Positions 2,258 to 60,118 are shown, counted from the stretch's first letter. The stretch is DNA of 64,000 nucleotides from Candidatus Bathyarchaeia archaeon (GCA_038883715.1 JAVZLS010000003.1:1-64000); one strand, 5' to 3'. The notes: generated from the letters alone by a model not told the origin. Numbers and translations: made by a program.

Positions 2258-3379
2258 ATGAAAATGGGCTTTATTGTTAATCCGATTGCTGGCATGGGCG
2301 GGAGAGTTGGGCTTAAGGGAACTGATGGTGTTTTAGAGGAGGCTATTGCAAGAGGGGCTAAACCAGTATCTCCAAAAAGGGCCGTAGAGTTCCTCCAAGA
2401 ACTTAAGGAAAACACGCATGGAAACTTCATTAAAATAATAACGTGTCCCGGGGTTATGGGCGCGAAGGAAGCAAAAGAAGCTAGCGTTCATGTGGAAATT
2501 TTGCCCATGGAAATCGAAGCAAAGACAACGGCAGAAGATACAAAAAGAGCTGTGGAGCTTTTGGCAGACAAAAAAGTAGACTTGATAGTATTTGTTGGTG
2601 GAGATGGCACTGCAAAAGATATTTTGGACGCGATGAAAAAGAAAGGCGTTGAACTGCCAGTTTTAGGAATTCCTTCAGGCGTGAAAATGTATAGTGGCGT
2701 TTTTGCCGTTAACCCTTCGGACGCCGTTGAAGTTGTCTTAGCCTATGCTAGGGGTGAGGCGGAAACAACTGAGTTTGAGGTTATGGATGCTGATGAGGCT
2801 GCTATTAGAAGCGACACTTTCGCGGTTAGGCTTTATGGTTTTTTGAAAGGACCTTTCCTTCCCTTAAGGATTCAAGGAAGCAAACAGGTTAGCCCAGAAA
2901 CAGTTGACGAAAAAGAGAATCAGATGGCAATAGCCAAATCAATAGTTGAGGAAATGCAGCCCAACGCCACCTACATCCTTGGACCAGGAACAACCGTGAA
3001 ATGTGTAGCCAAACTGCTTAAAGTCCCAAAAACAGTGCTGGGTGTTGACATTTACAAAAATGGCAAAGTCATATTGGACGTAGATGAGAAGAAGATTTTA
3101 GAAAACGTGGAAGACTGGCAGAACACTTGGATAATTTTGTCGCCAATAGGGAGACAAGGCATCCTTTTAGGCAGAGGAAACCAGCAAATAAGCCCAGAAA
3201 TCATAAAACGAGTTGGGAAAAACAAGATAATCGTCGCGGCAACAAAGAGTAAGCTCCGCGACATAGAAGGCGGAATTTTAAGGGTTGACACCGGAGACGT
3301 TGAAACAGACAAAATGCTTAGAGGATATATCAAAGTGGTTGCGGACTATCGAGAATGGCGCCTCATGCCAGTGCAATGA
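2258..3379 (+). CDS. ATP-NAD kinase family protein (AcoX-like)
   Basis: NPIAGMGG, GGDGT, GIPSGVKMYSGVFA, GRGNQQISP motifs. Confidence 0.85.
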   Translation: MKMGFIVNPIAGMGGRVGLKGTDGVLEEAIARGAKPVSPKRAVEFLQELKENTHGNFIKIITCPGVMGAKEAKEASVHVEILPMEIEAKTTAEDTKRAVELLADKKVDLIVFVGGDGTAKDILDAMKKKGVELPVLGIPSGVKMYSGVFAVNPSDAVEVVLAYARGEAETTEFEVMDADEAAIRSDTFAVRLYGFLKGPFLPLRIQGSKQVSPETVDEKENQMAIAKSIVEEMQPNATYILGPGTTVKCVAKLLKVPKTVLGVDIYKNGKVILDVDEKKILENVEDWQNTWIILSPIGRQGILLGRGNQQISPEIIKRVGKNKIIVAATKSKLRDIEGGILRVDTGDVETDKMLRGYIKVVADYREWRLMPVQ

Positions 3380-6332: not shown

Positions 6333-8165
6333 TCACTCCCACAATTTAACACGCTTCTTAAGCTGTTTAGCAACATCCTTTAAACCAAGCTTCTCAAGGG
6401 TAGTTTTTGTTGGAATCCCCCTTTCATCCCATCCTCTTTTTCGATAGTACATATTGAGCATAACCTCATACCTCGCCCTGTCAAGCTTTGCGCCTTTCAA
6501 ATCTCCCTTTGTTAGCGGTTCCTCAAACCATCTAGCTGGCGGAAAGTCCATTTCCCGACTCCAGTTCCTGCCGTACTCCCGTATCCAAAACGCTCGAATC
6601 AAATTGTAAACTCTGTCAGCTATTAGGTTTAGCTCGTCCCAGCTAATCTCAAAGCCTGTTGCAGCGTGCAAAAACTTTGGGTACCATTCAAGCTCAAAGC
6701 CAAGCTCAACCCATGGAAACCTGCAAACAGTGGCACACTCGAAAAAGCCTCCTCGAATGCGTTGTAACTCGATAACTTTGTCAACTTTTTCTTCACTGTA
6801 TCGCTCTCTACCAACTTTAACTTCCCAAGATATTATCCACGCATCTTTATGATGAGCCCCGATGGGGCTGGTGGCATAAGAAAGAGCCATCGCCGGCGCA
6901 GCATGGCAGTCATAAGCTGAAATCTCTAATCCCTTAACATGCATAGCCCAGCGGCTTGAATTCCCTCCAATTTTTTCAGCTGCAAAACGTACACCTTCCG
7001 CAAGAGTTGCACCAATACCACGTTTATAGGCAATATCCTCAATCAAAGCCCTAGCAGCCTTATAATTTCCCCATGGAATTTTTTCGCTAATCAACCCATT
7101 TTCAGAAGCCTCCATAGCGAAGCCAATAGCATTGCCAAGCGAAATCGTATCCAAGCCGAATTCATCAGCCAACCTATTAAGAACTGCAACCTTTTTCAAA
7201 TCGCCGACGCTAATGTTGGAACCCAGCATGGCGACATTCTCATAGTCAAGTTCAGACTCTTTGCGGTCAGCGTCCTTAACAACGTTGCCGCATGTCATGT
7301 TACAGTTGGGACACCCTTTTTGGGAAGACTTAATCTTCTCCATTGAAAAGCCGCCTATAGCCTCTGCATCCTCAAAAACCCCCTCACTAAAATTGTATGT
7401 GGGTAGTACGCTGTTTTCCTGGCTCCACTCAATCACCATCATAGTACCTTGACGTTTCCAGAAGGCATAATTCGGCTTTGTCAAAACCTCCCTATACGCT
7501 TCTGCACCGAGCTCCTTCAAATCCTTAGGATAAGCAGCTTGTAACTCACCACTGCCAACTATAACAACAGCTTTAAGGTTCTTAGAACCCATAACAGCAC
7601 CCATCCCGGATCTCCCACCGGCCCGCCCCCTTTGAGAGACAATGTTAGCAAACCGCACAAGGTTTTCGCCGCCTTGCCCGATTACAAGGATCCCAGCGGT
7701 CGTTCCATAAGTGCCTCGCAATCTATCTTCGGTTTCGAAAGCATTTAGACCCCAAAGTTCCTCTGCATCCAAAAATTCTACTATATTGTCTTCAATGAGT
7801 AGAACGGTTGGTCCTTCAGCCTTCCCTTCAATGATTACTGCATCATAACCTGCTTTGCGCAGTTGAACAGCGGCGTAAGTTCCAATATTTCCATCGCCAT
7901 AGCCGCCTGTTAATGGACTTTTAGCTGCAACAACCATTTTTCCACTGCTCGGTAAAGCAAAACCAGTTAAAGGTCCCGCTGCAAATATCAGCCTATTCTC
8001 CGGCGAAAAAGGATCTACACCGGGTTTTAATTCATCCCACAAAATTTTGGCGGCAAACCCTCTGCCTCCAAGAAAATTCCTTGCAAACACAGAATCATAC
8101 TCTTTAATAACAGCCTTCTGTTTAGTTAAGTTAATCCTTAAGAATTTACCATTCCAACCATACAT
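6333..8165 (-). CDS. Tungsten-dependent aldehyde:ferredoxin oxidoreductase family protein
   Basis: MYGWNGKFLRINL, GGRG, KSPLTGG, GMGAVMGSKNLKAV, CxxCxxxC, DEFGLDTIS, YYRKRGWDERGIP. Confidence 0.93.
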   Translation of the reverse strand: MYGWNGKFLRINLTKQKAVIKEYDSVFARNFLGGRGFAAKILWDELKPGVDPFSPENRLIFAAGPLTGFALPSSGKMVVAAKSPLTGGYGDGNIGTYAAVQLRKAGYDAVIIEGKAEGPTVLLIEDNIVEFLDAEELWGLNAFETEDRLRGTYGTTAGILVIGQGGENLVRFANIVSQRGRAGGRSGMGAVMGSKNLKAVVIVGSGELQAAYPKDLKELGAEAYREVLTKPNYAFWKRQGTMMVIEWSQENSVLPTYNFSEGVFEDAEAIGGFSMEKIKSSQKGCPNCNMTCGNVVKDADRKESELDYENVAMLGSNISVGDLKKVAVLNRLADEFGLDTISLGNAIGFAMEASENGLISEKIPWGNYKAARALIEDIAYKRGIGATLAEGVRFAAEKIGGNSSRWAMHVKGLEISAYDCHAAPAMALSYATSPIGAHHKDAWIISWEVKVGRERYSEEKVDKVIELQRIRGGFFECATVCRFPWVELGFELEWYPKFLHAATGFEISWDELNLIADRVYNLIRAFWIREYGRNWSREMDFPPARWFEEPLTKGDLKGAKLDRARYEVMLNMYYRKRGWDERGIPTKTTLEKLGLKDVAKQLKKRVKLWE

Positions 8166-8238
8166 AACGCATCATCTTTAATACAGACAGCATACGGTAT
8201 CACATCTCACTGTTAATAAAATTCACTGTTCAAAACCA

Positions 8239-9525
8239 CTAAATTTGCAGCCTTTCAGGCTCAACACGTCTTTCCTTTATGCTTAAATCACTGACTTTAA
8301 ATTTTCTATCACCAAAAAGAAGCGCATACTCCTCGCCATTATAAAGGGCTGCAGCTATCCTACCAATAGCATCCGCCTTCATAATACCACTTCCACTGGC
8401 ACCGCCAACGACAATTAAATCCCTCTCCTCAAAAATCACCGGATGCCCATCCAAAGTGTTAATCTCATAAAGCCCAGCAAAAGCAGAATATGGACGGCAA
8501 TCCCTAAACTGAGGAAAGTACTTTACAAGAACCTGATATATCCCATACTGATAGAAGTTCTTCTCAGGCTGAGGATCCTCCTCAAGCTTAAAGGCCCTTG
8601 GAAAATCATCAGCATAACTAAGCCAAAAAACACCTTCTGTTGGAAACGGCCTTATTAAAACTCTCGGTTTTGGCAGAATAGTGAAGGGCAAACAACCGAC
8701 AGAATTAAAACTTTCTGCGAAAAGCAAACGCCTCAAAAGGGGATTTTTGGCTTCCACAGCAAAAACTTGCCTCTTTTTAGGCTTTATAAAACACTCAATC
8801 CCTACACCGTCTAAAATTTGAGGAATCCAAGCACCAGCTGCCAAAATAGTTTTCTTTGCCTTAATTATCCCGGAATCCGTTTTTACGCCCGAAACTCTCG
8901 ACTCCTGCCAGAAGAAAGGTTCTCCAGCTATTCCGATGGGTTTACATGCTTCAACAGTTAAATCTTGGACTTTAACGCCGTAATGAATCTCCCCGCCAAG
9001 TCGCAAAAATTCTTCCTCATAAAACTTGACGACGCAATCAGCGTCAACAATTCCGGCTTTTGGAATAAAAATTCCCTTATAAACGTCTTTTAATCCCATA
9101 AGCTCAGCCTCCTCATCCCCGCGCAAACGTATGTTCAAGCCAAGCGGCTTAGCGAGTTCTTCAGCTTCATACTCTCTATATTTTAGGCCTTTGGCTGCTA
9201 ACTCTTTCAAAATTGGAGACATCTCTGCAAAATCATCCTCTCCTAAAAGCCACAAATATCCCACAAAAAACAATTTTAAGTCGACGCCAAGTTCCGTTTG
9301 CACATAATTATAGAAGTCAACAGAAGAGTCGGAAAGAACATAATTTATTGGAGAAGAGAATAAACATCGGAAGGCGGACATGCTTTTTGCAGTGCTTCCC
9401 TGCCCCGCCGCGCTAAACTTGTCAACAACTAATATTTTCAAATTTGGATTTTGCCTCTTAATGTGATAGGCTGTTGATAAGCCGATAACGCCGGCTCCAA
9501 CTATAACCGCGTCATATTCGGTCAC
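8239..9525 (-). CDS. FAD-dependent oxidoreductase (DAO / sarcosine oxidase beta / proline dehydrogenase family)
   Basis: IVGAGVIG FAD-binding motif, AAGAW, GASGSGIMKADAIG. Confidence 0.85.
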   Translation of the reverse strand: MTEYDAVIVGAGVIGLSTAYHIKRQNPNLKILVVDKFSAAGQGSTAKSMSAFRCLFSSPINYVLSDSSVDFYNYVQTELGVDLKLFFVGYLWLLGEDDFAEMSPILKELAAKGLKYREYEAEELAKPLGLNIRLRGDEEAELMGLKDVYKGIFIPKAGIVDADCVVKFYEEEFLRLGGEIHYGVKVQDLTVEACKPIGIAGEPFFWQESRVSGVKTDSGIIKAKKTILAAGAWIPQILDGVGIECFIKPKKRQVFAVEAKNPLLRRLLFAESFNSVGCLPFTILPKPRVLIRPFPTEGVFWLSYADDFPRAFKLEEDPQPEKNFYQYGIYQVLVKYFPQFRDCRPYSAFAGLYEINTLDGHPVIFEERDLIVVGGASGSGIMKADAIGRIAAALYNGEEYALLFGDRKFKVSDLSIKERRVEPERLQI

Positions 9526-9662
9526 GAGACTCCCTCTTGGACATGCAGATTTTTAAGAACGATCAAAACATGTATTATAAATTTGCCTTTAGAAATTGCC
9601 TAAAAGGAATGTTTATCTATTTCAAAGGAATATGAGTCTAGAAACGCTAGGACGGGAAGGTT

Positions 9663-11387
9663 ATGAACTGGCGAATAGACATAAAAGCAGCCTCAACCCT
9701 TGTAATTATAATTCTTATAATAATTTCCGCGATAATAGGTGGGATAATATCCTACGCTTTCACAATTGCATATTATACTAAGACGGCTCCTGCCATAACA
9801 ATCACTGACATTTACATAAATAAAGAGGATGTCACCTCGTTTACAATAGGCGTTTTAAACCCGTCTTACTCGCCAAGAAATGCAATTATATCCAGAATTG
9901 CAATAAGCTTGAAAGGAGAAACACAGTTATACGACGTTATTCAAACGGAGCCCCCTATCGAAAACGGAATTGTTCTTCAAATAGGTGAATCCCGAAATAT
10001 AACATGCAAAAGGATAAAGAGGGAAAACGCGAACCTTACCTTAGGAGACCTTATAGGCAGTTATGGTTTCGCTGGCAAAACCATGATTGTACATATATTT
10101 TCCTCTGATTTTCCAGCCACAAGCAAGGAAGCGAAGCTGCCTTATGTCAAACTTGACATAACAGAAGATTTCAACTCAAAATATTCGTTCGAAAAATTTA
10201 ACATAACTCTGACAAATGACCAACAATCAGAGGTTAACATAACCCTCAGCAGAATGCTTATCGGTGTGGTAAATTATTCTCAAGTAGATCCTCCCATTGA
10301 GGGGTATATTATTCCAATAGGCGAGTCTGTTCGTTTCAATTTTATTGGAAACTGGTATGGAGTTACAGCGGCTAGGATCGACGTAAACACAAGGCAGGGG
10401 TATAATTTCCGCAAAGAGATAGAAACAAAATGGGTTTATGCAGCAATCCAAAGCGTAAACTTTGACATACAACATACAGACCACTTTAATGTCACAGTTT
10501 TCAACGCTGCGGAGTCTGATCATTATGTGAACATTACAAAAATTACATGTAAACTGTACGACGGAACAGATCCTGACCCGCTTGAATGCGGTTCAGTTGG
10601 GATATTACCAAATACGTCCATGACGTTTAAATTTGAGTGGAGTTGGAGAGACTACAGAGGGCGAAACGTTACAATTACAGCATATTTCCTTCAAGATTTT
10701 TCAGCCGCCCTGAATGTCACAACGCCACCGCCAATAATAGTTAATGCCAACGGAAGCATTTTTGATCTAAAGGACATAGGACATTTTAATATAACTATAC
10801 TTAATCATGTTTCATCACTTGAGCCCATAAACATTACACAAATTAAGATTAAGAAAACTGGACAAATACTAAATGGAACTACGGAAGTTAGCCCGCAACT
10901 TCCTTATGGACCAATTGCTCCCGGTGAGAATAAGACGTTAAGCTGCACATTTGATTGGGCAGAATACATTAAAGATTACAATGACAAGAGTTTGACTCTA
11001 ACAATAAATGTTACAACAAACGCGACTCCGTCAAGAAGCTACTCATTTGATTTTACATTCGTTCTTCCAGTGGCAGAAATCAATGCAACTGTGTACTTTA
11101 AAACTGATGAAACGAGATATGTCAACGTGACTATAGTCATTAAAAACTTAGAGCATTCTCTCTGGAATCTCACGTTGTCAGAAGTTGTTTTAACAGTTAA
11201 TGCTTCAGCAGGCTCGTTTGAATATAAATATACTTTCCCAGAAGGTGAAGTGATCAACGTTGGTGGTGATATCGTTTTGCTGTTTGCCTTAGACAAGCAG
11301 AAATGCTCGGGTAACACTTTGACTTTAACGGTCATCACAGAAGAGTTGGGAGAAATAAAAATTCCATTTTCTTGGCTCGTTCCATAA
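9663..11387 (+). CDS. Large membrane-anchored surface glycoprotein with tandem beta-rich repeats (pilin-like N-terminus)
   Basis: 574 aa; KAAS followed by a hydrophobic stretch; repeated FNITxxN...VNITxI units; many N-x-S/T sequons. Confidence 0.7.
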   Translation: MNWRIDIKAASTLVIIILIIISAIIGGIISYAFTIAYYTKTAPAITITDIYINKEDVTSFTIGVLNPSYSPRNAIISRIAISLKGETQLYDVIQTEPPIENGIVLQIGESRNITCKRIKRENANLTLGDLIGSYGFAGKTMIVHIFSSDFPATSKEAKLPYVKLDITEDFNSKYSFEKFNITLTNDQQSEVNITLSRMLIGVVNYSQVDPPIEGYIIPIGESVRFNFIGNWYGVTAARIDVNTRQGYNFRKEIETKWVYAAIQSVNFDIQHTDHFNVTVFNAAESDHYVNITKITCKLYDGTDPDPLECGSVGILPNTSMTFKFEWSWRDYRGRNVTITAYFLQDFSAALNVTTPPPIIVNANGSIFDLKDIGHFNITILNHVSSLEPINITQIKIKKTGQILNGTTEVSPQLPYGPIAPGENKTLSCTFDWAEYIKDYNDKSLTLTINVTTNATPSRSYSFDFTFVLPVAEINATVYFKTDETRYVNVTIVIKNLEHSLWNLTLSEVVLTVNASAGSFEYKYTFPEGEVINVGGDIVLLFALDKQKCSGNTLTLTVITEELGEIKIPFSWLVP

Positions 11388-44321: not shown

Positions 44322-45038
44322 TTGGATGCCATGGCTAAGAAACCTTCAAGGCTTCCAGAGGCTCTGGAAGTCGTTTACAGCACAGAACGTTGGGCTTTGC
44401 TCAAGAAACTTAGGGCAAAGGCTTTGCAATTAATGGAGGCGCTTGCAAAGTTTAATATAGAAGCCATAACCCACGGCAGCATTGCGAGAGGAGATGTGAC
44501 AGAGAAAAGCGATGTTGACATTTTCACACCCCATCCACCATCATCCTTTCTAGTTGAAACAGCTCTTGAACAGGCGGGAATACCGATAAACAGGCGACTC
44601 GTTGTGCAAGCGACACCTGCATACGCAATGAAAGGCTACATCGAAATTGACGAAAGAACCAGTGTCTCGTTTCCATTAATGAATATGCGAAGGATTGAAA
44701 GGGAATTTTACAAGTTCGGTGGTGAAGCGACATTTGAAGTTTTGAAATCTGGAGCGCGGGTTGCCGGCGTGGATAAACGCCTAATGCTCATTGAGCCCAC
44801 TGAGAAAGGACATAAAGAAAGCGGGATAATTGGCCGAGAAGAACATGTTGCCAAAACGTTGAAAATTTCTGTAGAAACAGTTCTTGATAGGGTTCACGCC
44901 CTTCTGAGAAGGAACGATGTGGGCAGAACTGGTGTTTTTCTCCAAAAGGAGCTAGCTGAGGGCGAAACCTTCGAGTTAGCTTTGAAAAAATTGGCAGAAG
45001 AAAATCCAGCCATTCGAAGGAGACTAAAAACCGTTTAA
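44322..45038 (+). CDS. Pol-beta superfamily nucleotidyltransferase (archaeal)
   Basis: HGSIARGDV..SDVDIF, EREFYKFGG, RVAGVDKRLMLIEP, VGRTGVF. Confidence 0.85.
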   Translation: MDAMAKKPSRLPEALEVVYSTERWALLKKLRAKALQLMEALAKFNIEAITHGSIARGDVTEKSDVDIFTPHPPSSFLVETALEQAGIPINRRLVVQATPAYAMKGYIEIDERTSVSFPLMNMRRIEREFYKFGGEATFEVLKSGARVAGVDKRLMLIEPTEKGHKESGIIGREEHVAKTLKISVETVLDRVHALLRRNDVGRTGVFLQKELAEGETFELALKKLAEENPAIRRRLKTV

Positions 45039-46123
45039 GCCAACTGCATTGGCGGTGCAAACCTTAGAAGGGCAGCCACCCCGCCTAAAGCAACAAGTTT
45101 TGCTCCAGCCTCGTGTTCTGTGCTTATAACCATGACTTTTCCGCCTTTCTGCTCCACGTCCTTCATTAACTGCTCCAAGGATAAGCGCTCCTCATCCTCC
45201 GCCCTCCGCAATATTATGTCGGCCAAAACTAGTACACCAACAGCTCCATATTCCGAGACCTTCTGAACCTCGTCTAAACCGTAAACCACTGTTCGCTCGC
45301 CTTTGCCGAGCCTTTTCAGGATTTCCTCAACAACTTCGGTTTCCTCAGCGATTCTCAAATGCTTCATAGTCTTTGTTAGGACTCCTGAGCGGATAGCCTC
45401 ATAAATGCCTGCGACACCACTGTTGTTTACGCTTTTCACGTCGGCGACTGATTTGGCCATTTCTGGATCTTCTTTCTCCAAAAACTTTGCAAAGTCGTTT
45501 TTTATGAAACCTACGCCAATTATGGCGATTGGGCTGCGGGCTTCGCTCCATATTTGGCGCAAATTGTTGAACACGTTTTGGAAGAACTCTTTGACCGCCG
45601 CGCTTCTTTTTTCAGCCTCAAGTTTTCCCGGAAGCCTTGTCCGTTCCTCCACTTTTACTTCAACGCCATACTGAGTCGTTGTGGCTATTGCAAAGCCTTC
45701 ATCATCTATCGCCACAATTATTATGGGCTTTTCAGAAGTTTTCCTGGCTATCTCCAATCTTTCAAGATGGTGACTCGCCCACTCCTCCTTTACAATAGTT
45801 ACTGGCAAATTCAATGTAATATTCAACGTGTGATGTGCACCTGCTGGAATTATTTCTGGTGCATGGCATATTGTTCCATGAACCCTAAGTCTTCCGAGGA
45901 GCTTGTCCCAAGCAACCTTTTCCACCTTAACGCCCATGAAAACTGAAACCCTTTCGCCCCGCTTCCCCCTAGAATATTTCTCGTCCTGTTTTATCTCTCG
46001 TGATGTGTAGGCGTAAACCTCGTCGCCCACATAGATAATGTTGTAGAGATGCCACAGATCGTCAAGAGTTTCGGGAATAACCTTTACAAAGCCCTTTTTT
46101 AAGTTCATCTCCAGAATCTTCAA
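45035..46123 (-). CDS. pelA: mRNA surveillance protein Pelota
   Basis: PETLDDLWHLYNII, RLRVHG, GAHHTL, YGLDEV, STEHEAG..L.ALGGVAALLRF. Confidence 0.95.
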   Translation of the reverse strand: MKILEMNLKKGFVKVIPETLDDLWHLYNIIYVGDEVYAYTSREIKQDEKYSRGKRGERVSVFMGVKVEKVAWDKLLGRLRVHGTICHAPEIIPAGAHHTLNITLNLPVTIVKEEWASHHLERLEIARKTSEKPIIIVAIDDEGFAIATTTQYGVEVKVEERTRLPGKLEAEKRSAAVKEFFQNVFNNLRQIWSEARSPIAIIGVGFIKNDFAKFLEKEDPEMAKSVADVKSVNNSGVAGIYEAIRSGVLTKTMKHLRIAEETEVVEEILKRLGKGERTVVYGLDEVQKVSEYGAVGVLVLADIILRRAEDEERLSLEQLMKDVEQKGGKVMVISTEHEAGAKLVALGGVAALLRFAPPMQLA

Positions 46124-51140: not shown

Positions 51141-52415
51141 CTACTCTTGCATTTTGAAGCGTAGAATGGCTGCTATTCCGCCGAATGAATTTTTAAGCAT
51201 CTGTCCCTCTTCAGTTTCTTCAGAGATTATTTCGACTTCTGTGTTTGCGTATTCGGCTAGTTGGGCGAAGTTTTCTATCAACTCCTGCTTTTCAACAATG
51301 TTTAACGATGGGGCCTTACATTTTGGGCATGGTTTTCCAATAAGGCTTTGCTCGAAACTTGCTAGCATGGGGCTTTTAACTGTATGCTGCTCCTCATAAC
51401 TGCATGCACTGCACTTGACCTTCACACGCGCGATATCGAGACCTTCTGAAAGCAATAGAGTCTTGACGGCGCCAGCTTCCAAGGCTTTTCTAACGGCTTC
51501 TTCCCCATAAGTGGCAAAACCAGTATCGTGACCAATTTCGTATAGGAACTGCTGCATTATTTGCCTCTCTTCTATGTAACGGATTTTCCTCATAATCTCT
51601 GGCGCCTTGTCCACTATTTCCTTTACCCCTTGTTCGTCAACGTAAGCCGTGTCAACAGTGTCAATGATTTTCTCCTTCAGCTGGTAATTTAGGTAGTCGC
51701 CTTTCTCGAAGTCGTATTTAGTTGGTCCGGGTCCACCAATTATTATGCCCTTCAAATTCTCTATGGGAAGGAAAACTTCGTTTGCATGTTCGCCCACACG
51801 TCTAAAATACTCTTGGAGACGCATTTCCCTAAGCCTTTCAAACCTTCTGGCAGATTGTCCTCCGGCACGAGTTTTTCCCGGAACACCGGATGTCACTTCC
51901 CTAACTATTTCGAGTCTTCGGCCCTGAAGGGTTGCAAGGGTTGCGGCTGTCGCGTCTATGAGGAGAATGCCATAAGTCTCTTTTTCTCGCAAAAGCTCTT
52001 GCAAATGTTCAGTGTGGAAGCGGGAGTCGCATCTGTAAAGGTATATGTTTATGGGCTCCGGCGGTATAATCACGTACGTCTCGATTTTTTCGCTTCCGGC
52101 GCCATTTTGGGGAACCGCCCCACAAAATATTACAAGTCCGTTTTCTGGAGTTTCCTTGAAAAGTTTTAGGCGCTGCTGAACCTTGACAATGGCGTCTTGG
52201 ACATTTTTGCGGGTTGTTGTGGACTTTATGTTGGAAGCGGTGCCGTATTCCTCCCTAAGCATGTTCATGACTTCGCTTATCTGCTTCCCTGGTGGAATGT
52301 AAAGCGAAATGAGTTCTGTTCCTCGTCCCTCTTTATTGGCTAGCGTGTTCAGTATCTTTTTTAACCGAAAGATTTCGAGGGACGTCCTTCTTTTAGGAGT
52401 GCTCAAATTTTTCAC
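51141..52415 (-). CDS. prf1: Peptide chain release factor aRF1
   Basis: GTELISLYIPP, ASNIKS, YRCDSRF, GGQSARRF, Zn minidomain CSAC...CPKC, FGGIAAILRF. Confidence 0.97.
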   Translation of the reverse strand: MKNLSTPKRRTSLEIFRLKKILNTLANKEGRGTELISLYIPPGKQISEVMNMLREEYGTASNIKSTTTRKNVQDAIVKVQQRLKLFKETPENGLVIFCGAVPQNGAGSEKIETYVIIPPEPINIYLYRCDSRFHTEHLQELLREKETYGILLIDATAATLATLQGRRLEIVREVTSGVPGKTRAGGQSARRFERLREMRLQEYFRRVGEHANEVFLPIENLKGIIIGGPGPTKYDFEKGDYLNYQLKEKIIDTVDTAYVDEQGVKEIVDKAPEIMRKIRYIEERQIMQQFLYEIGHDTGFATYGEEAVRKALEAGAVKTLLLSEGLDIARVKVKCSACSYEEQHTVKSPMLASFEQSLIGKPCPKCKAPSLNIVEKQELIENFAQLAEYANTEVEIISEETEEGQMLKNSFGGIAAILRFKMQE

Positions 52416-52479: not shown

Positions 52480-53463
52480 TTAGGACAAGCCTAAAACTTC
52501 TCTCAGAAAAGCCTTATATGGTCCAAGTTTTCCACCATAGTTGCCAGCTGAAATTCGCAGAACGCCTGGAACATTTATGGCCGCCTTTATGCCTTCTCCC
52601 ATAGCCTTCTTAACAGCTTCAACCGTCAAGCCGTTAATGACTATTTCATAGACGGCGTTAACGTCTTCTGGCAGCTGAGAGTCTTCCACAACTTTCTTCA
52701 GTGTTGGACAGAAGGGATGGTTTGTTGAAGCTTTAAGCTTATATTTTAAGGAGCCAGCTTTAGAGCCGGATCGGCAGACTCCGCCTGGAAAAGGCATTAT
52801 AACTCCGCTTGCGCCATTTTTTATTGCTTTTACGGCTTCCTCTGCGGCTTGCAGTCCCGAGTTTTTGTCCTTTGCCAGTATGAGGAAGTTCCCCCCGGCA
52901 ACAGCCTCTACAACACCAAAAGCGTCTTCCACTATGAATTCACCTTCCATAACCGGGATTCTCCAAACCTTTCTGCCACCAACAATGCCCTTCCTTTGGA
53001 AGCCATCACCAAAATAGCGGAGGCTTCGCCCAACTTTCACCCTTCTTTTTGCTTCTAGCAAAGCGTCGAAAGCCGCCGTTGTTGGACAAGTCATTATGCA
53101 CTGTCCAATGCGTAGAACCATTTGATTCTTCAGATCAAAACGATTCCTATTGTAGATTTGAATTAAGGCGCCCACCCTTCCATCGGGAGTTTTTTCTCCA
53201 GAAACAAGCCCTTCAATTCCAGCTTCAGCGGGAGCCATAATGACGCTTGTGGCAAAGCCTGTTGCCACTTCAGCGGCGGTTAAAGCCCATTTTTCGCTGT
53301 CTGCCGTGATGAGCACTCTCCCAGCCCACATGGGGAATATTTCGGCGAAGGTGTCTGAAACTTTTACGGTGTGACCCCCTTGGGACTTTATTATGAGGCA
53401 TGGTCCAAACTTGTCCTTTTCATCGCAGCCGACTATTTCAAGTTTGGCTTCGCTTGGCACCAT
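52480..53463 (-). CDS. ftr: Formylmethanofuran--tetrahydromethanopterin N-formyltransferase
   Basis: DTFAEIF, TGFATSVI, EAGIE, TPDGR, RIGQCIMTCPTTA, FGDGFQ, GGNFLI, PFPGGVCRSGSK, ASTN, AGNYGGKLG. Confidence 0.95.
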   Translation of the reverse strand: MVPSEAKLEIVGCDEKDKFGPCLIIKSQGGHTVKVSDTFAEIFPMWAGRVLITADSEKWALTAAEVATGFATSVIMAPAEAGIEGLVSGEKTPDGRVGALIQIYNRNRFDLKNQMVLRIGQCIMTCPTTAAFDALLEAKRRVKVGRSLRYFGDGFQRKGIVGGRKVWRIPVMEGEFIVEDAFGVVEAVAGGNFLILAKDKNSGLQAAEEAVKAIKNGASGVIMPFPGGVCRSGSKAGSLKYKLKASTNHPFCPTLKKVVEDSQLPEDVNAVYEIVINGLTVEAVKKAMGEGIKAAINVPGVLRISAGNYGGKLGPYKAFLREVLGLS

Positions 53464-53606
53464 ATTCAAACCTAGCTTTGAGGATAGGCATAATCTCATT
53501 TAAGACTTTTCGCTACAAGCGGCGGAATGCCATGTTAGCAGCTTTAAATGGATAATTGCCAAACAGCCTTTAGAAGCCTAAACTATTTATTCCTTAACTC
53601 TATAAG

Positions 53607-54665
53607 GTGCTAACCATGAAAACTGCCAAAGTTAGCTTTGAAGAGTCCATAGCTGAGGCTGTTGTCAAAACTGGAAAATGCGTTTGCTGCGGCACATGCG
53701 TGCTTGTTTGCCCTTTCAACTGCCTTGAGTATGCTGAAGAAAAGCCTAACCTAGTAAAAGAATGCAAAGTTTGCGGCATATGCGCGCAAGCATGCCCCCA
53801 ATACGACTTTCCACTATCAAAAATTGAGAATTTTGTGTTTGAAAAAGAACGAAAGCCCAATGAAGCTTTTGGAATTTACAAAAGACTCGCCTTAGCAAGG
53901 GCTACTGACAAACAAATTTTAGAAAAATGCCAAGACGGCGGAGCTGTGACGGCTTTACTTTTATTCGCCCTAAAAAATGGCATTATTGACGGGGCAATAG
54001 TTGCGAAGAGCGAGCGGGAAAAGCCATTCTACCCGCATCCGACACTTGCCACATCAGCCGATGATATATTACAAGCGGCCGGAACGAAGTACTTTTACTC
54101 GCCAAATGTCCTTGCTATAACAAAAGCTTTGGAACAGAAACTTGGAAAAATAGCGTTAGTCGGAACACCATGCCAAATTCGCGCAGTAAGAAAAATGCAG
54201 TTTGTCGGGCTTAAGAAATATATCACTCCATTAAAATTTCTAATCGGGCTAGCATGCTCCGAGTGTTTCATTTATGACGGACTTATGAAACAGCACATCA
54301 TCGGAAAGCTGGGAGTAGACCCAAATCGCATCAGGAAAATCAACATTAAGGGCAAAATGCTGTTGACACTAGAGACTGAAACGGTGGCAATACCACTCAC
54401 GGAAGCAAAACAATACGCAAGAAAAAGCTGCCACTTCTGCGAAGACTTCAGTTCAGAGTTGGCTGACATTTCTGTCGGCGGACTTGGCCTTGAAGGATGG
54501 ACCTTTGCGATTATACGCACAAAGCAAGGCGAAGAACTATTTTCCAGCGCGGAAAAAGCTGGAGCTATTATAACCAAAGAGGCAAGCACCGAAGCAAACG
54601 CCCTAAACTTACTGATTAAACTTTCTGCGAAGAAAAGAACCGCAGCTAAAGAGTTGGCAAAATAA
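53607..54665 (+). CDS. FrhB/FpoF-like F420-dependent oxidoreductase subunit with N-terminal 2[4Fe-4S] domain
   Basis: CVCCGTCVLVCP and CKVCGICAQACP; QDGGAVTALL, AAGTKY, VGTPCQ, IGLACSECF, CHFCEDFSSELADISVG. Confidence 0.9.
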   Translation: MLTMKTAKVSFEESIAEAVVKTGKCVCCGTCVLVCPFNCLEYAEEKPNLVKECKVCGICAQACPQYDFPLSKIENFVFEKERKPNEAFGIYKRLALARATDKQILEKCQDGGAVTALLLFALKNGIIDGAIVAKSEREKPFYPHPTLATSADDILQAAGTKYFYSPNVLAITKALEQKLGKIALVGTPCQIRAVRKMQFVGLKKYITPLKFLIGLACSECFIYDGLMKQHIIGKLGVDPNRIRKINIKGKMLLTLETETVAIPLTEAKQYARKSCHFCEDFSSELADISVGGLGLEGWTFAIIRTKQGEELFSSAEKAGAIITKEASTEANALNLLIKLSAKKRTAAKELAK

Positions 54666-54743
54666 AGTGAGGCTGGCACACGCTTTTCTGAAATACTTAT
54701 AAACATTGTTTTCTAAATATGGCTTCAAGCTCGATGCCTTAAG

Positions 54744-55643
54744 GTGCGCTCCGTGAAGAAGGTCAAGATCGGCGTCTTCAAATGTGGCAACATTGGAACT
54801 GCACCCTTGCTTGAACTTCTTTTCGATGAGTTGGCCGATAGAGAGGACATAAGCGTTCGAACGATAACAACTGGAGCGAAAATGCTTGCGGAAGAAGTCG
54901 CAGAAGCCTTACCAAAAATCTTTAACTTCAATCCAGACTTCATAATTTTCATTTCGCCAAACCCGGCGGTTCAAGGACCCAGAAAAGCCATGGAAATCCT
55001 CTCGGAAAAGAAGATTCCGAGCATCTTCATCTCCGACGCCCCGGGCAAACGCCTAAAAGAGGAATTTGAAAAACAAGGCTTCGGTTACATCATAGTTATG
55101 GGTGACCCTCTTATAGGGGCTAGAAAAGAGTTTCTAGATCCGACTGAAATGGCGATTTTCAATTCAAATGTGATAAAGGTGCTGGCAATCACAGGTGCCT
55201 ACAGAATGATTTACCAAGAAATCGACCGAATCATCCACTGCTGCAAGGAAGACATAGCGTTTGAACCGCCACGTCTAATCATAGACACCGACAATATTAG
55301 GGATAGTTCTGACTTTAGGAACCCATATGCTCTTGCAAAGGCTATGGCAGCTTACGAGCTGACAAAGAAAATTGCGGAAATAAATACACGAGCATGTTTT
55401 ATGGAAAAAGATAAGGAGAAATATATCCCGTTGGTGGCGTGCGCCCATGAAATCGCGCAAGTTGCAGCCAGCCTTGCCGAAGAGGCTAGAGAAATTGAGA
55501 AGTATGCGGATACTCTTGTTAGGAGACCCCACTCTAGGGAGGGAAAATTAAAAGTTAAGGACAAGTTGATGTTGCCTCCTACTTTTGATGAGGAAATTTA
55601 CCAGAAATGGCTTAAGACGTTGAAGCTGAGAGGCAACCCATAG
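54744..55643 (+). CDS. mtd: F420-dependent methylene-H4MPT dehydrogenase
   Basis: KCGNIGT, DELADREDI, GAKM, SPNPA..GP, DPLIGARKEFLDPTEMAIFN, F.NPYA.AKAMAA, AHE, AREIEK, RRPH. Confidence 0.93.
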   Translation: MRSVKKVKIGVFKCGNIGTAPLLELLFDELADREDISVRTITTGAKMLAEEVAEALPKIFNFNPDFIIFISPNPAVQGPRKAMEILSEKKIPSIFISDAPGKRLKEEFEKQGFGYIIVMGDPLIGARKEFLDPTEMAIFNSNVIKVLAITGAYRMIYQEIDRIIHCCKEDIAFEPPRLIIDTDNIRDSSDFRNPYALAKAMAAYELTKKIAEINTRACFMEKDKEKYIPLVACAHEIAQVAASLAEEAREIEKYADTLVRRPHSREGKLKVKDKLMLPPTFDEEIYQKWLKTLKLRGNP

Positions 55644-55722
55644 TTTTGTATATACGCCATTAATACATATATATGATATTTCGAATAAGTATATATTTTC
55701 CGCCTTCTATTTTAGCTCTCAG

Positions 55723-57444
55723 GTGAAAACAATGAAAGCTCTTGAAATAACACCTTTAGAAGGAAAAACTTTAAGGGTAATAATAGTCGAGAAAGAATAC
55801 AGCGAACCATTCTGGATCGCAGAGCCCACAAACAATCACACACCAAAAAACATCCTGTCATCCAGATTTAAGCCATCCGTTGCCTTTTGCAGCTTCTTCG
55901 AAAAACTAATAGACGAAGTTAAACCAGACTTCATAACAGAAGAGCTAGGAAACCGCTCACCAAAAGAGTTTAACGAAAACAATGTGCTTGTCCAAATAAG
56001 CCAGAAAACGAAAATCCCCTTCTTCGCCGTCGACATCGACGAAAATGCACGAGGTTATGTGGCTTCTCTAATCGAAGAGAAAAGACAGCTTAGAGACAAA
56101 ATATTGAAGGCATTGGAGGAAATGCCTGAAAACAGCGCCGAAAAGGAGTACTTAATAGCCTATGGGCAATGCTTACAACAGGAAATTGAGGAGTTAGAGC
56201 GTGAAGCGAAGTTTTCAGTTAGGGAAAGCTGGATAGCTATGGGAATTCTTGAAAATGCGAGAAGCCTAGAAAAAACAGAGGTTACATGCCTACACATATC
56301 AAGTCCAGAACATGTAGGCGGAGTCAAAAAGCTTTTAGAGTCCGTGGATGTTGATGTAGAGACAATTCAGCCGACAAAAAAGTTGGTCCTCACAAAGGAG
56401 AAAGCGCCGATGGCTGAGATTGAGGATTTACTCAAATCCATGCAAATCCAAGTTAAACCAGTTATCAGAACAACATCCGAAGAGGCCCCTTACATCCTCT
56501 TCTTCCTAGACACAGACAAGAGGGCAAGCCCCTTCGATATTTGCATGGCCTACGACGCCGGATTCAGCGTTGTAGTCCCATATGAAAACGTAACCACCGA
56601 CGAAGCAAAGAAAATAGTGCAAGACGCCATCTTCTCCAGAGACCCAAAGGGGATTAAGCGCACATGCTTCTTCATAGGCGGAAAAGACATGGAAAAAGCA
56701 GAAGATGTCCTAAAAGTTGTGCGCGAAACCATGTTCCCACCATTCCAAGCCAACACTATAATCGACCCTGCCGGTGCCTACACAACGGCTGCAGCCATGG
56801 TGGCTAAAGTTGAAGATGCCATAGCAAAAGCCAAACTTGGAAACTTGAAGGATAAGCGAGTGGCAATTTTTGGCACAGGAGCCGTTGGAAGGGTTGCAGC
56901 CATTTTATTGGCTAAGCTTGGATGCGCCGTCAAGATTGTCAGCCCAAACCCTGACAGAAAAGATGGAGACGAATATGTTTCAAAGCTGTCCGCTCTACTC
57001 CGTGAAAGATATGGCGTGGATGTTGAAGGCGTTTTCGCTCCAACACCGGAGAAAAAGGTTGAGGTTATAAATGATGCAGACATTATTCTCTGCGCTTCCG
57101 TTGCTGGCGTCCGCATAATAACTAAAGACATGCTGGAATCAGTGAAATTTGTCAAAGTTATAGCTGATGTCAATGCTGTCCCACCACTTGGAGTGGAAGG
57201 AATGAAACTTGACGATGACATGAGAGAATTTGCCCCAGGAATCTTCGGCATAGGCCCATTAACAATTGGGCGACTCAAGTACAAGCTCGAACGCGAAATC
57301 TTGAGAGAAGCAAGAAGAAATGGTAAAGGAACAGTCTACAACTATAACTACGCAATGGAGTTAGCAAGAAAAATATTGAAGGGCGAACTTCCAGCCGCCA
57401 AGCTTACTGTTACGGTTAGTTATCCTTCAAAGGAACGAAAGTAA
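55723..57444 (+). CDS. NAD(P)-dependent methylene-H4MPT dehydrogenase (MtdB/MtdA-like) with extra N-terminal TraB/Tiki-like domain
   Basis: C-terminal about 320 aa: SPFDICMAYDAG, QDAIFSR, FFIGG, PPF, DPAGAYTTAAAMV, GTGAVG, DVNAVPPLG, IGPLTIG..KY, matching remembered methylotroph MtdB motifs. Confidence 0.88.
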   Translation: MKTMKALEITPLEGKTLRVIIVEKEYSEPFWIAEPTNNHTPKNILSSRFKPSVAFCSFFEKLIDEVKPDFITEELGNRSPKEFNENNVLVQISQKTKIPFFAVDIDENARGYVASLIEEKRQLRDKILKALEEMPENSAEKEYLIAYGQCLQQEIEELEREAKFSVRESWIAMGILENARSLEKTEVTCLHISSPEHVGGVKKLLESVDVDVETIQPTKKLVLTKEKAPMAEIEDLLKSMQIQVKPVIRTTSEEAPYILFFLDTDKRASPFDICMAYDAGFSVVVPYENVTTDEAKKIVQDAIFSRDPKGIKRTCFFIGGKDMEKAEDVLKVVRETMFPPFQANTIIDPAGAYTTAAAMVAKVEDAIAKAKLGNLKDKRVAIFGTGAVGRVAAILLAKLGCAVKIVSPNPDRKDGDEYVSKLSALLRERYGVDVEGVFAPTPEKKVEVINDADIILCASVAGVRIITKDMLESVKFVKVIADVNAVPPLGVEGMKLDDDMREFAPGIFGIGPLTIGRLKYKLEREILREARRNGKGTVYNYNYAMELARKILKGELPAAKLTVTVSYPSKERK

Positions 57445-57457
57445 GCCGTAGCAAAGG

Positions 57458-58474
57458 TTAAGATGGGACCTTAAAGGACTGGTTGATGGTAATTTCTGCA
57501 ATGTCCGCCGAATACTCCGCTATGCGCTGGATGCCGTCCCTAATGGAGCAGCACGCGCAAATAACCTCAGTGTCTTTTTCCTTCAAAAATGCTAGGGATG
57601 CTATCTCCCTATCCAATTTCTCTATTTTAGCCTGATTCTCAATAACCTCATTTGCCGTTTTCACATCCTTTGCGAAAAGGGAATTTACAGCGTTATCATA
57701 AAGCGCTAATGCGTCGCATCCAGCCGAATACATTTTCTCTAATAAGGGCCTTGAAACTTCTTTTCCGCCCCCTTCCATCATAATTACGTGTTTTGCTACA
57801 TTGGCGGCTTGATCTGAAACTTGTTCTATGCGGTGAATAAGCGTCTGATAATCTAAGCAGTCGATGGGTTCTACGGCAAGCTGGTTAGCCAACGCAGGAT
57901 CAACAGCTGCCCTACGCACTAGCCTCAGCAAGAAGAAGGAGAAGTGGTCAACCTCATCGTCTATCATATAAACTGACTTGGCAAGGGCTGCATCTTGTTC
58001 TTTAAGGGCTGTGAAGGCATCCCGGCACATCGAGCTTGATATTTTATACATCCTATTAATCCCGGTTTCAATGGACGCTTTAGACTCGTCTATGAGGGTT
58101 GCAATGTGCATCTCTTTGGTGTCTGCTTCCATTATCCGCATGTAAAGCATCTGCACAATCCTTCGAATGGCTTTCTGCTGAGGCACAGTGAAAAATTTGT
58201 CTGAAACAAGTCTAATGTTGGAATAACCATTTAAATAGCAGGCAATTATGCTGCGGATGACAAAGGATATGTCCTTCTCCGATTCAACACGGAGAGTTAT
58301 CTTGGCTGGTTCCCGCTCCTTCCGCGCCCCGGGAAAAACAACAAGGGAGCGGTCTCGGTTCATCGCAATGGAGACAACGTCGCCACTTTTAAGCTCATTT
58401 AACTCTGTCCAATATTTTGGAAGCGAAATGACAAGCGAAGAACGCCCGAGAGACATTATTTTACGCTGTTCCAT
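57458..58474 (-). CDS. AbrB-PhoU fusion regulator (archaeal phosphate-uptake-regulator type)
   Basis: RKIMSLGRSSLVISLPKYW AbrB domain, RSIIACYLNG, DDEVD, IEQVSD, RIAEYSADIAE. Confidence 0.88.
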   Translation of the reverse strand: MEQRKIMSLGRSSLVISLPKYWTELNELKSGDVVSIAMNRDRSLVVFPGARKEREPAKITLRVESEKDISFVIRSIIACYLNGYSNIRLVSDKFFTVPQQKAIRRIVQMLYMRIMEADTKEMHIATLIDESKASIETGINRMYKISSSMCRDAFTALKEQDAALAKSVYMIDDEVDHFSFFLLRLVRRAAVDPALANQLAVEPIDCLDYQTLIHRIEQVSDQAANVAKHVIMMEGGGKEVSRPLLEKMYSAGCDALALYDNAVNSLFAKDVKTANEVIENQAKIEKLDREIASLAFLKEKDTEVICACCSIRDGIQRIAEYSADIAEITINQSFKVPS

Positions 58475-58864: not shown

Positions 58865-60118
58865 TTGGCTCTTCCATTTCTGCAAAGTGGAGCAAGCTTG
58901 CCGTTGACAATCACAAAAATACGGAACTTCTTGGTTATAGGCATAGACACAACTTTTATTGCCGCTTCTGCAAAAAGCGCCGGATACAACGTTTACGCCG
59001 TTGACTATTTCGACGACGTTGACCTACAATGGACCTGCGACGATTACGAGTCCGCAATAAAGCATCGCAAAAGCGAAGGTGACGGAGATAAGAGCACCTT
59101 TTTTAACCCACAAGTTCTCTTTAAACTGGCAAAAAATTTTGTGAAAAAGCATAATATAGATGCAATTTTGCTCTCCTCAGGTCTTGACGACCAGTTCGAC
59201 ATCCTTTACGAGCTGAATCTCATAGCGCCGATACTGGGGAATTCGCCCAACATCATCAGAAAAGTTCGCGAAAAACAGAGATTCTTTAAAGAACTCAAGG
59301 CGCTAGGCATCCCCCATCCTGAAACAGTCGTTGTTAAAAGCTTTTTGAAAGCGAAGGAAGCCGCCGCCAAGATTGGGTACCCTATCGTCATTAAACCAAC
59401 CAGTGGCTTTGGAGGAATAGGAATAAAAGTTGCATCAAATTTTTCAGAACTAGCGGAAGCTTTATCATCAGCGTTTAAAACGGCTGGCAGAGTTGTTATC
59501 CAAAAACTGATTAGAGGCTTTCATGCAAGCATATCCCTTTTGGCTAATAAAAAAGAGGTTAAGATTTTGTCCATAAATGAGCAACTGTTAGGGTTGCCAT
59601 CGGTTTTTCAAGAGGAGCCTTTTGGCTATTGCGGTAATATCGTGCCTCTTCAAACAACCGAGTCACTTTTAGCAAAGTGTCAATTTATAGCTGAAAAAAT
59701 CGCCTTGCAATTTGACCTTATAGGTTCGAATGGCATTGACATTGTCATTTCAGAAGATGGAACACCATACGTGATAGAGGTTAACCCGCGGTTTCAGGGA
59801 ACTTTGGGCTGCATGGAGAGAGTTTTAGGAATAAATCTCGTCGATGCCCATGTCAAAGCTTGCCTACATAATGAACTGCCAACAGTAAAGCCGCCCTTAA
59901 ATTTTTGCACACGCCTCGTCTTGTATGCTCCTAAGCGCGCCGTGGTTCCAGACCTTACAACAATAAAAGAGGCGCGGAATATTCCTCCTCCTCAAAGCAT
60001 AATTGAAAAGGGAGAACCTTTATGCTCAGTTTTGGCTGAAGGGGAAAGCCGAGAAACATCCTTGCAAAAGGCCAGCGACCTAGCCAAGGCGATTTACAGT
60101 AAGTTACAGCCACTTTAA
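58865..60118 (+). CDS. ATP-grasp protein of the type found in H4MPT/methanofuran gene clusters
   Basis: AGYNVYAVDYFDDVDL, LGNSP, KPTSGFGG, QKLIRG..ASI, NEQLLG, FGYCGNIVP, GSNGID, EVNPRFQG. Confidence 0.8.
   Translation: MALPFLQSGASLPLTITKIRNFLVIGIDTTFIAASAKSAGYNVYAVDYFDDVDLQWTCDDYESAIKHRKSEGDGDKSTFFNPQVLFKLAKNFVKKHNIDAILLSSGLDDQFDILYELNLIAPILGNSPNIIRKVREKQRFFKELKALGIPHPETVVVKSFLKAKEAAAKIGYPIVIKPTSGFGGIGIKVASNFSELAEALSSAFKTAGRVVIQKLIRGFHASISLLANKKEVKILSINEQLLGLPSVFQEEPFGYCGNIVPLQTTESLLAKCQFIAEKIALQFDLIGSNGIDIVISEDGTPYVIEVNPRFQGTLGCMERVLGINLVDAHVKACLHNELPTVKPPLNFCTRLVLYAPKRAVVPDLTTIKEARNIPPPQSIIEKGEPLCSVLAEGESRETSLQKASDLAKAIYSKLQPL

Follow-up and report, generated by a model that had tools for sequence, protein, structure and literature searches.

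A module-bearing MtdA-like dehydrogenase beside F420-dependent Mtd in Bathyarchaeia, and a possible exchange node for ferredoxin, F420, and NADP(H)

The DNA examined here is a stretch of 64,000 nucleotides from a Candidatus Bathyarchaeia archaeon (GCA_038883715.1, JAVZLS010000003.1:1-64000; contig C3 of a 1.33-Mb genome that is 90.3% complete), which we refer to as the window. At positions 52,480 to 57,444 it carries a one-carbon (C1) gene cluster in which two non-homologous dehydrogenases lie in tandem: Mtd, the F420-dependent methylene-tetrahydromethanopterin (methylene-H4MPT) dehydrogenase, and an MtdA-like dehydrogenase of the MtdA/B/C family fused to an N-terminal module of an undescribed protein family. 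Across two archaeal lineages, the Bathyarchaeia and the Asgard archaea, Mtd occurs in 47 of the 49 genomes that encode both the module and an MtdA-like domain, versus 2 of the 35 that encode the MtdA-like domain alone. The resulting rule, which any genome can be used to check, is that a module-bearing NAD(P) dehydrogenase comes with F420-Mtd and a plain form comes without it. We suggest, tentatively, that the cluster is a methenyl/methylene-H4MPT node of the archaeal C1 pathway wired to ferredoxin, F420, and NADP(H), a reading that we hold to be quite possible though short of probable. The rule bears on how ferredoxin, F420, and NAD(P)H are balanced around the H4MPT Wood-Ljungdahl pathway in these two lineages: it singles out a specific candidate that could link the F420 pool to the NAD(P) pool, and it gives the undescribed family, of ∼255 aa, its first functional context.

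The cluster and the gene that follows it are laid out in the window as follows.

52480..53499, minus strand: ftr, formylmethanofuran:H4MPT formyltransferase (Pfam FTR, 184.9 bits, and FTR_C, 212.2 bits; TIGR03119)
53607..54665, plus strand: FrhB-type F420 reductase, 352 aa (Pfam FrhB_FdhB_N and FrhB_FdhB_C)
54744..55643, plus strand: mtd, F420-dependent methylene-H4MPT dehydrogenase (PF01993, NF002162)
55723..56493, plus strand: N-terminal module of the fused gene, residues 1-257 (family undescribed)
56494..57444, plus strand: MtdA/B/C-type dehydrogenase domain, residues 258-573 of the fused gene (PDB entries of MtdA; Mpt_N)
57458..58474, minus strand: AbrB/MazE-like protein with two PhoU stretches (Pfam PhoU; weak MazE_antitoxin match)

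The module-bearing dehydrogenase tracks F420-dependent Mtd

We surveyed 201 Bathyarchaeia and 121 Asgard genomes, the latter entered through one related locus (L006); the surveyed genomes are relatives and hence not independent samples. Among the Bathyarchaeia, 131 genomes encode Mtd, 47 have an Mpt_N domain, and 20 carry the module. The MtdA-like domain carries the module in 18 genomes, in each of which the fusion was confirmed open reading frame (ORF) by ORF, and all 18 encode Mtd. In the 29 genomes where the MtdA-like protein lacks the module (27 short forms and 2 fusions to Mer), Mtd was never found over the cutoff (0/29, with one sub-threshold match at an E value of 5e-4). The other two module genomes, one with a fragment at a contig end and one with a stand-alone copy, both encode Mtd. 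Within the Asgard sample, 33 genomes encode the module, 37 Mpt_N, and 78 Mtd. Module and MtdA-like domain occur together in 31 Asgard genomes, of which 29 have Mtd; 6 have the MtdA-like domain alone, and Mtd is present in 2 of them. A co-occurrence survey had been suggested by an earlier, sequence-only reading of the window, and its outcome is that the module-bearing form tracks Mtd in both lineages.

The link extends to gene order. In 11 of the 18 Bathyarchaeia loci, mtd adjoins the fused gene (one gene away in one locus), and because of this recurrence the arrangement is not a product of chance. The tandem of two dehydrogenases had been the central observation of the sequence-only reading, and co-occurrence and adjacency carry it well beyond the window; what that reading overlooked is the 257-aa module.

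The module and the MtdA-like domain belong together. They are fused in N-to-C order in the window protein and in reversed order in a protein of 496 aa (P0142; Mpt_N at 16-95, module at 321-487). Five of the Asgard loci retrieved, L041, L042, L045, and L046 among them, hold two N-terminal domains (Ndom) and an MtdA-like protein as three neighboring genes, and this Ndom-Ndom-MtdA-like triplet is recognizable by coordinates in 8 Asgard genomes. A stand-alone copy of the module precedes the fused gene in L035, L036, L040, and L047 to L049, and when six long module-bearing proteins were tested, all six carried Mpt_N and nothing else. In one genome (L025, G199:C7) the fused gene is split near its 3' end into ORFs of 515 and 69 aa in two frames, which may reflect a frameshift or an assembly error.

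Features of the MtdA-like domain

The last gene of the cluster (55723-57444, plus strand) encodes 573 aa. Residues 258-558 align with the MtdA structures 6tlk, 6tge, and 1lu9 at E values of 1e-35 to 2.4e-35, and Mpt_N matches residues 270-350 with 106.4 bits. An Mpt_N domain followed by a Rossmann domain, alignable across the whole of the solved enzyme, places the protein in the MtdA/B/C family, whose usual form is a stand-alone protein of ∼290 aa; the window protein departs from that form by its 257 additional N-terminal residues. Compared with Methylorubrum extorquens MtdA (NADP; H4MPT or tetrahydrofolate [H4F]) and its paralogues MtdB and MtdC, the alignment runs end to end with the ∼288-aa enzyme, but the window protein is archaeal, coexists with F420-Mtd, and bears the extra N-terminal residues (for background on MtdA/B/C enzymes, see the pertinent parts of PMC3505017). 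The sequence-only reading had called this a bacterial-type MtdB. The family identity holds, but the adjective is a historical label: of the genomes sampled, 47 of the 201 from Bathyarchaeia and 37 of the 121 from Asgard archaea encode a member; the nearest bacterial-named relatives are Methylomirabilis-labeled proteins with ∼48% identity.

We built a quick, midpoint-rooted tree of the domain with SH-aLRT support, its rows comprising archaeal forms and unnamed or Methylomirabilis-labeled short forms only. The window protein falls in a clade of 21 rows (SH-aLRT, 97) in which Bathyarchaeia and Asgard sequences are mixed, and fused forms appear in several separate clades. The Rossmann motif GTGAVG lies at residue 384, with a Ser ending β2 and a conserved Arg after it. 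As a general rule for Rossmann folds, Ser plus Arg at the end of β2 is NADP-like and Glu is NAD-like, which suggests that the window enzyme prefers NADP.

Two Bathyarchaeia genomes of one family (loci L031 and L069, ORF of 643 aa) encode a plain MtdA-like domain joined in one chain to a luciferase-like domain of the Mer type. The L031 protein (8233-10152, minus strand), checked with Pfam, has Mpt_N at 20-100 and Bac_luciferase at 321-612. The gene for this fusion adjoins an FrhB-like gene, and F420-Mtd was found in neither genome. Such a chain would probably carry out two successive H4MPT steps, one linked to NAD(P) and the other to F420.

Sequence and predicted fold of the N-terminal module

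Residues 1-257 gave no match to Pfam or PDB sequences, either singly or as a 30-member profile, and only 76 clusters were retrieved at an E value of ≤1e-3 among 1.84 billion representatives, partly fused proteins of 550-580 aa and partly stand-alone proteins of 200-265 aa. The AlphaFold2 (AF2) model of the module (pLDDT, 89.4; pTM, 0.79) has a five-stranded α/β core that is interrupted at residues 107-180 by a long helical hairpin, and the polar residues E8, S52, E74, R78, Y112, R167, W170, and H197 are conserved across 33 fused proteins.

A Foldseek search of this model against the PDB returned no match at an E value of ≤1e-3. With VIA-align, the top rows over the whole domain were a Tetrahymena complex IV subunit (8b6h_DQ; Z, 8.9), ChaN (2g5g; Z, 8.8; 147 residues aligned with a root mean square deviation of 4.3), and CbiL (Z, 8.7); most rows cover just the helical hairpin, at residues 105-165, unrelated α/β folds (CbiL and SUMT) reach Z scores of 7.9-8.7, and tetrapyrrole-methylase N-domains, at 7-8.7, come nearly level with ChaN. 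The nearest Atlas cluster bearing a Pfam annotation is TraB/GumN, with a score of 0.79. Set against the TraB/GumN/ChaN (TIKI) superfamily, the module has ChaN among its best whole-domain fold matches but no sequence match to PF01963: this family is absent among the best 25 of the 44 families listed for 30 module members at an E value of ≤1, and it was not found in the host genome. The GxxH-type metal motif, which we take to be typical of the TraB/ChaN family, is not evident on strand 1 of the module. From the model, a TraB/ChaN-like origin is possible.

In the full-length model of the fused protein (pLDDT, 84; pTM, 0.57) both halves are confident and the linker at residues ∼220-257 has low confidence. 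Given this pTM and the poorly defined linker, the N-terminal part is best modeled as a tethered module of the MtdA-like enzyme. We also considered whether the module stands in for a pathway enzyme. Replacement of Mch was rejected, Mch being present in the host genome, and replacement of Mer is unsupported, since Mer is present in 6 of the 18 fusion genomes.

Mtd and the FrhB-type protein

The window Mtd matches PF01993 with 386.2 bits (cutoff, 25) over profile positions 1-273 of 274 and the equivalog NF002162 with 378.3 bits (cutoff, 297). Beside the enzymes of methanogens and Archaeoglobus it is a full-length member, ordinary in itself, and it is the company of its gene that is unusual. It is predicted to use F420 as its hydride carrier. 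Ftr is likewise a family member (TIGR03119, 405.5 bits against an equivalog cutoff of 292.6); the family match begins at ORF residue 44, and the true start may lie further inside the ORF.

The gene between ftr and mtd encodes a protein with two CxxCxxCxxxCP motifs (residues ∼24-35 and ∼53-64), as for two [4Fe-4S] clusters, followed by FrhB_FdhB_N and FrhB_FdhB_C, which together span residues 96-327 (Pfam). Methanosarcina FpoF is the input subunit of the F420H2 dehydrogenase, and its soluble form is a ferredoxin:F420 oxidoreductase. The window protein has the same domain order as FpoF, a ferredoxin domain and then an FrhB-like domain, but scores far below the FpoF cutoffs (NF006808, 123.5 bits against 444; NF040616, 118.2 bits against 475), and the label FpoF-like, given to it from the sequence alone, is not supported. 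It also stays under the cutoffs for FrhB, narrowly so for the subfamily model (NF006807, 253.7 bits against 269; TIGR03289, 228.9 against 331.5), and its gene adjoins ftr and mtd with no FrhA or FrhG partner beside it at the locus.

The best solved full-length relatives are 8riu_B (E value, 2.2e-51) and 8rja_E (E value, 3.4e-48), and residues 18-334 of the window protein align to residues 15-330 of 8riu_B, giving it the architecture of an F420 reductase. The entries 8RIU (zeta subunit) and 8RJA represent the F420-reductase subunits on carbon monoxide dehydrogenase (CODH) and Fwd of Ca. Ethanoperedens thermophilum, described as having a ferredoxin domain at 1-83 and an FAD/[4Fe-4S] F420-reductase domain at 84-349 (Lemaire et al. 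2024, PMC11493965). The zeta subunit also bears a C-terminal extension of 20 aa that serves dimerization. The window protein has in common with them a 2×[4Fe-4S] ferredoxin domain, an FrhB-type FAD/[4Fe-4S] domain, and a length of ∼350-370 aa, but its gene sits with ftr and mtd, away from the cdh and fwd genes. In sequence and architecture, its nearest counterparts appear to be the subunits that give CODH and Fwd their F420-reducing activity.

This protein is the sole FrhB homologue detected in the host genome. Relatives at an E value of ≤1e-20 occur in 171 of the 201 Bathyarchaeia genomes, and for at least 21 of the 131 genomes that encode Mtd the coordinates put a relative ≤600 bp from mtd. 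The FrhB-like gene adjoins a plain MtdA-like gene in three genomes that lack Mtd (L054, L066, and L067). CofD-family and nitroreductase-family genes stand between mtd and the FrhB-like gene at L014:5151-6077 (plus strand), in the closest relative (G145).

Gene arrangement and C1 inventory of the host

All four genes proposed in the sequence-only reading (ftr, the FrhB-like gene, mtd, and the MtdA/B/C-type gene) lie where it placed them, with identities borne out by Pfam, NCBIfam, and PDB matches, and ftr is indeed divergent from a gene with two [4Fe-4S] motifs, across a spacer of 107 bp. The gaps between the FrhB-like gene and mtd and between mtd and the fused gene are 78 and 79 bp. GGTG motifs resembling ribosome-binding sites were found in the spacers, and from these the starts of the FrhB-like gene, mtd, and the fused gene are likely at 53616, 54753, and 55732.

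Besides the Ftr of the cluster, we found in the host genome Fwd (FwdA), Mch, and CODH/acetyl coenzyme A synthase (CdhC), with Mch and FwdA adjacent on C13 and both FwdA and CdhC on contigs other than the window, as well as CofD and three to four CofE-type genes. At 90.3% completeness, the genome yielded no Mer, no luciferase-like protein of any kind, no MTHFR, no Fno, no CofH, no FolD, and no Fhs; G351, which at 97% completeness leads the genomes sampled in the genus, likewise yielded neither FolD nor Fhs. From the genes found and not found, H4MPT rather than H4F appears to be the C1 carrier of the host, and F420 could be completed from its precursor. Provisionally, methylene-H4MPT has no detected route to the methyl level and F420H2 no detected consumer but Mtd.

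A possible exchange node between ferredoxin, F420, and NADP(H)

We infer the following scheme, its cofactor specificity, flux direction, cycle, and any physical complex included. The FrhB-type protein would pass electrons between iron-sulfur donors and F420, the donor being either free ferredoxin or the electron wires of Fwd and CODH, where such subunits dock in Ethanoperedens. Mtd would equilibrate F420H2 with the methenyl/methylene-H4MPT couple, and the MtdA-like domain would equilibrate the same couple with NADP(H). Run jointly, the two dehydrogenases would catalyze F420H2 + NADP+ → F420 + NADPH, H4MPT mediating the transfer in catalytic amounts. The N-terminal module, tethered to the MtdA-like enzyme, would be its partner or adaptor and would dock it to Mtd or control the cycle, a role suggested because the module is kept only where Mtd coexists.

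Standard potentials are about −390 mV for the methenyl/methylene couple, −360 mV for F420, and −320 mV for NADP. On these values the Mtd reaction is close to equilibrium, oxidation by the NAD(P) enzyme releases free energy, and flux is therefore expected from F420H2 to NADP+, downhill by about 8 kJ/mol. Exchange between F420 and NADP through methenyl/methylene-H4MPT fits the evidence but is unproven.

The net reaction is that of Fno (F420H2:NADP+ oxidoreductase), a single small enzyme that transfers hydride directly. A closer functional analogy is the Hmd/Mtd cycle of hydrogenotrophic methanogens, reportedly the work of Afting and Thauer and of Hendrickson and Leigh, in which two non-homologous enzymes acting on one couple also move reducing power between carriers. 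The methanogen cycle connects H2 with F420, whereas the one proposed here would connect F420 with NAD(P) and involves no Hmd.

The loci of relatives provide a setting of redox exchange, as the sequence-only reading had supposed for the window when it spoke of a redox hub: beside the module or MtdA-like genes lie NfnAB-like, FrhB::NfnB, FrhB plus NuoF-like, and HdrA-Mvh systems, and Fno was not found in the host or in 17 of the 18 fusion genomes. By their domain content these neighbors appear to be redox-exchange modules. At L038, NfnA-like and NfnB-like genes follow the fused gene, and L039 has size-matched genes in the corresponding positions. At the Asgard loci L040 and L041 an NfnA-like gene and an FrhB::NfnB fusion (∼925 aa) follow the MtdA-like gene. 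At L017 there is an FrhB with a 2Fe-2S domain together with a NuoF-like protein, two genes away. L035:4531-9139 (plus strand) encodes an HdrA-like protein that ends in an MvhD (FlpD) domain, together with MvhG-like and MvhA-like ([NiFe] hydrogenase) subunits, beside the module and MtdA-like genes; by gene size the order recurs at many Asgard loci (L033, L034, L036, L041, L042, L045, L046, and L048 to L050).

The FrhB::NfnB genes merit a description of their own. At L041:10993-14668 (plus strand) and L040:10235-13901, an NfnA-like gene (DHODB_Fe-S_bind, 295-298 aa) is followed by a gene of 922-928 aa, and the L041 copy, checked with Pfam, fuses 2×[4Fe-4S], FrhB, and NfnB/GltD-like domains. We regard the product as a candidate F420-linked Nfn-type enzyme.

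Loh et al. 2021 write that where F420H2 comes from "remains unclear" for the Bathyarchaeia they studied, and their Bathy-6 case corresponds to our plain, Mtd-less MtdA-like class (PMC7886697). Our literature search, which had subscription journals and supplements outside its scope, returned no paper on the coexistence of the two enzymes, the module, or the fusion, and the portions covered of PMC10974373, PMC12533140, PMC10321748, and PMC8498797 held nothing on their co-occurrence. The link between module and F420-Mtd, the redox neighborhoods, and the identity of the FrhB-type protein are new.

Evidence against an exchange node and alternative explanations

A number of observations weigh against the exchange node. 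An AT-rich, TATA-like stretch lies in each 78-79 bp spacer, one per gene; each gene may thus have its own promoter, and co-transcription is therefore not assured. In a single RNA run, of which 12% was read, 0 reads mapped. In Asgard genomes mtd is mostly on another contig or >3 kb from the fused gene. In the 6 fusion genomes with Mer, the node can feed a full Wood-Ljungdahl pathway. Fno (TIGR01915) passes the cutoff in 1 of 18 fusion genomes versus 30 of 113 other Mtd genomes, a contrast that is weak and confounded by phylogeny, and both Fno and an MtdA-like gene are lacking from 83 Mtd genomes, which means that NADPH supply does not in general depend on the dehydrogenase pair. The missing 10% of the host genome could hold Mer, Fno, or CofH. 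The cofactor, too, is predicted to be non-uniform across the MtdA-like family, with Ser...Arg ending β2 in the window's clade and Glu (NAD-like) in some Asgard clades, and the full-length model of the fused protein predicts no fixed arrangement of its domains.

The alternative that survives best is a division of labor without a cycle, the two enzymes working in opposite directions or under different conditions. Here the NAD(P) enzyme, in the manner of methylotroph MtdB, would oxidize methylene-H4MPT that comes from serine, glycine, or formaldehyde, Mtd would serve CO2 reduction, and the module would be a regulatory brake or an oligomerization domain that guards against a futile cycle. We consider this possible but doubtful. 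The standard potentials make the NAD(P) reaction exergonic when oxidative, the failure to find Mer, MTHFR, or a luciferase-like protein fits oxidation or biosynthesis better than acetogenesis, and each gene has a separate TATA-like spacer. The conserved AbrB-PhoU-type neighbor could regulate such an arrangement, and a control device would, like a docking module, be seen only where both enzymes coexist. Both enzymes are, however, freely reversible and share a pool, so joint activity gives net exchange whether "intended" or not; transhydrogenase-type modules neighbor the genes in relatives; and the predicted fold with Mtd weakly supports a contact.

That contact bears on a more specific form of the exchange node, in which the module-bearing MtdA-like protein and Mtd would make up a dedicated two-enzyme complex replacing Fno, with the module as the docking element and bound methenyl/methylene-H4MPT as the shuttle, and would constitute the F420H2:NAD(P)+ transhydrogenase of those archaea, Bathyarchaeia and Asgard, that use the Wood-Ljungdahl pathway without being methanogens. 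We judge this rather unlikely. Folding the fused protein with Mtd gave a complex score of 0.47 (runs of 0.43, 0.47, and 0.51), the best control scoring 0.00, which lends the contact weak support. The mark used is passed by 116 of 157 solved complexes and by 2 of 215 mismatches, and scores of ≤0.60 comprise just 18 of the 157 solved complexes plus both passing mismatches; a prediction in the 0.47 band would be wrong oftener than right unless the guess is likely a priori, which counts against the complex and, with it, the node.

It is improbable, in our estimation, that the tandem is inherited C1-gene synteny, its members coupled by nothing more than a shared pathway, and that the module does something unrelated, for instance as a ligand binder or a degenerate hydrolase of the TraB/ChaN type. 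The relatedness of the surveyed genomes, the separation of mtd from the fused gene in 7 of 18 Bathyarchaeia and most Asgard genomes, and the middling, generic α/β matches of the module in fold searches would all suit such an explanation. It sits poorly with the co-occurrence of module and Mtd in both lineages, with the spread of fused forms over separate clades of the domain tree, and with the module never having been seen fused to anything other than an MtdA-like domain.

Least credible of all is an MtdA-like domain that acts on another substrate (methylene-H4F, another pterin, or some other compound) and shares no pool with Mtd: Methylorubrum MtdA accepts both H4MPT and H4F, its PDB entry calling it "Bifunctional," and the domain is unplaced among subfamilies A, B, and C. 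Against the H4F alternative raised in the sequence-only reading, however, speak FolD, Fhs, and MTHFR not having been found in the host genome (nor FolD and Fhs in G351). In other Bathyarchaeia the plain form takes the place of Mtd beside Ftr or Mch (L059, L061, L062, and L070) and in two genomes it is fused to Mer, both of which put the family in the H4MPT pathway, and Loh et al. 2021 read Bathy-6 in the same H4MPT-pathway terms (PMC7886697).

A conserved AbrB/PhoU neighbor and other genes of the window

The gene for the AbrB and 2×PhoU protein lies tail to tail with the fused gene in the window, with 13 bp between the stop codons. Such a gene adjoins the fused gene in 15 of the 18 Bathyarchaeia loci (the window counted), convergently in 14, and also at the Asgard loci L038, L039, L043, and L044. 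It is possibly a regulator.

Further along (58865-60118, plus strand), the window encodes an ATP-grasp_3 protein of 417 aa whose relatives, with 55-58% identity, lie near the MtdA-like gene at L015, L053, and L055. Its weak matches include an MptN-type H4MPT:glutamate ligase, and it may act in cofactor biosynthesis. An NAD kinase (2258-3379, plus strand) and an aldehyde:ferredoxin oxidoreductase (6333-8165, minus strand), which bear on NADP and ferredoxin supply, are encoded in the window unlinked to the cluster. The window also holds two eRF1-family genes, at 45035-46123 and 51141-52415 (both minus strand), of which one is aRF1 (TIGR03676, 558 bits) and the other is pelota-like, matching eRF1 domains 1 and 3.

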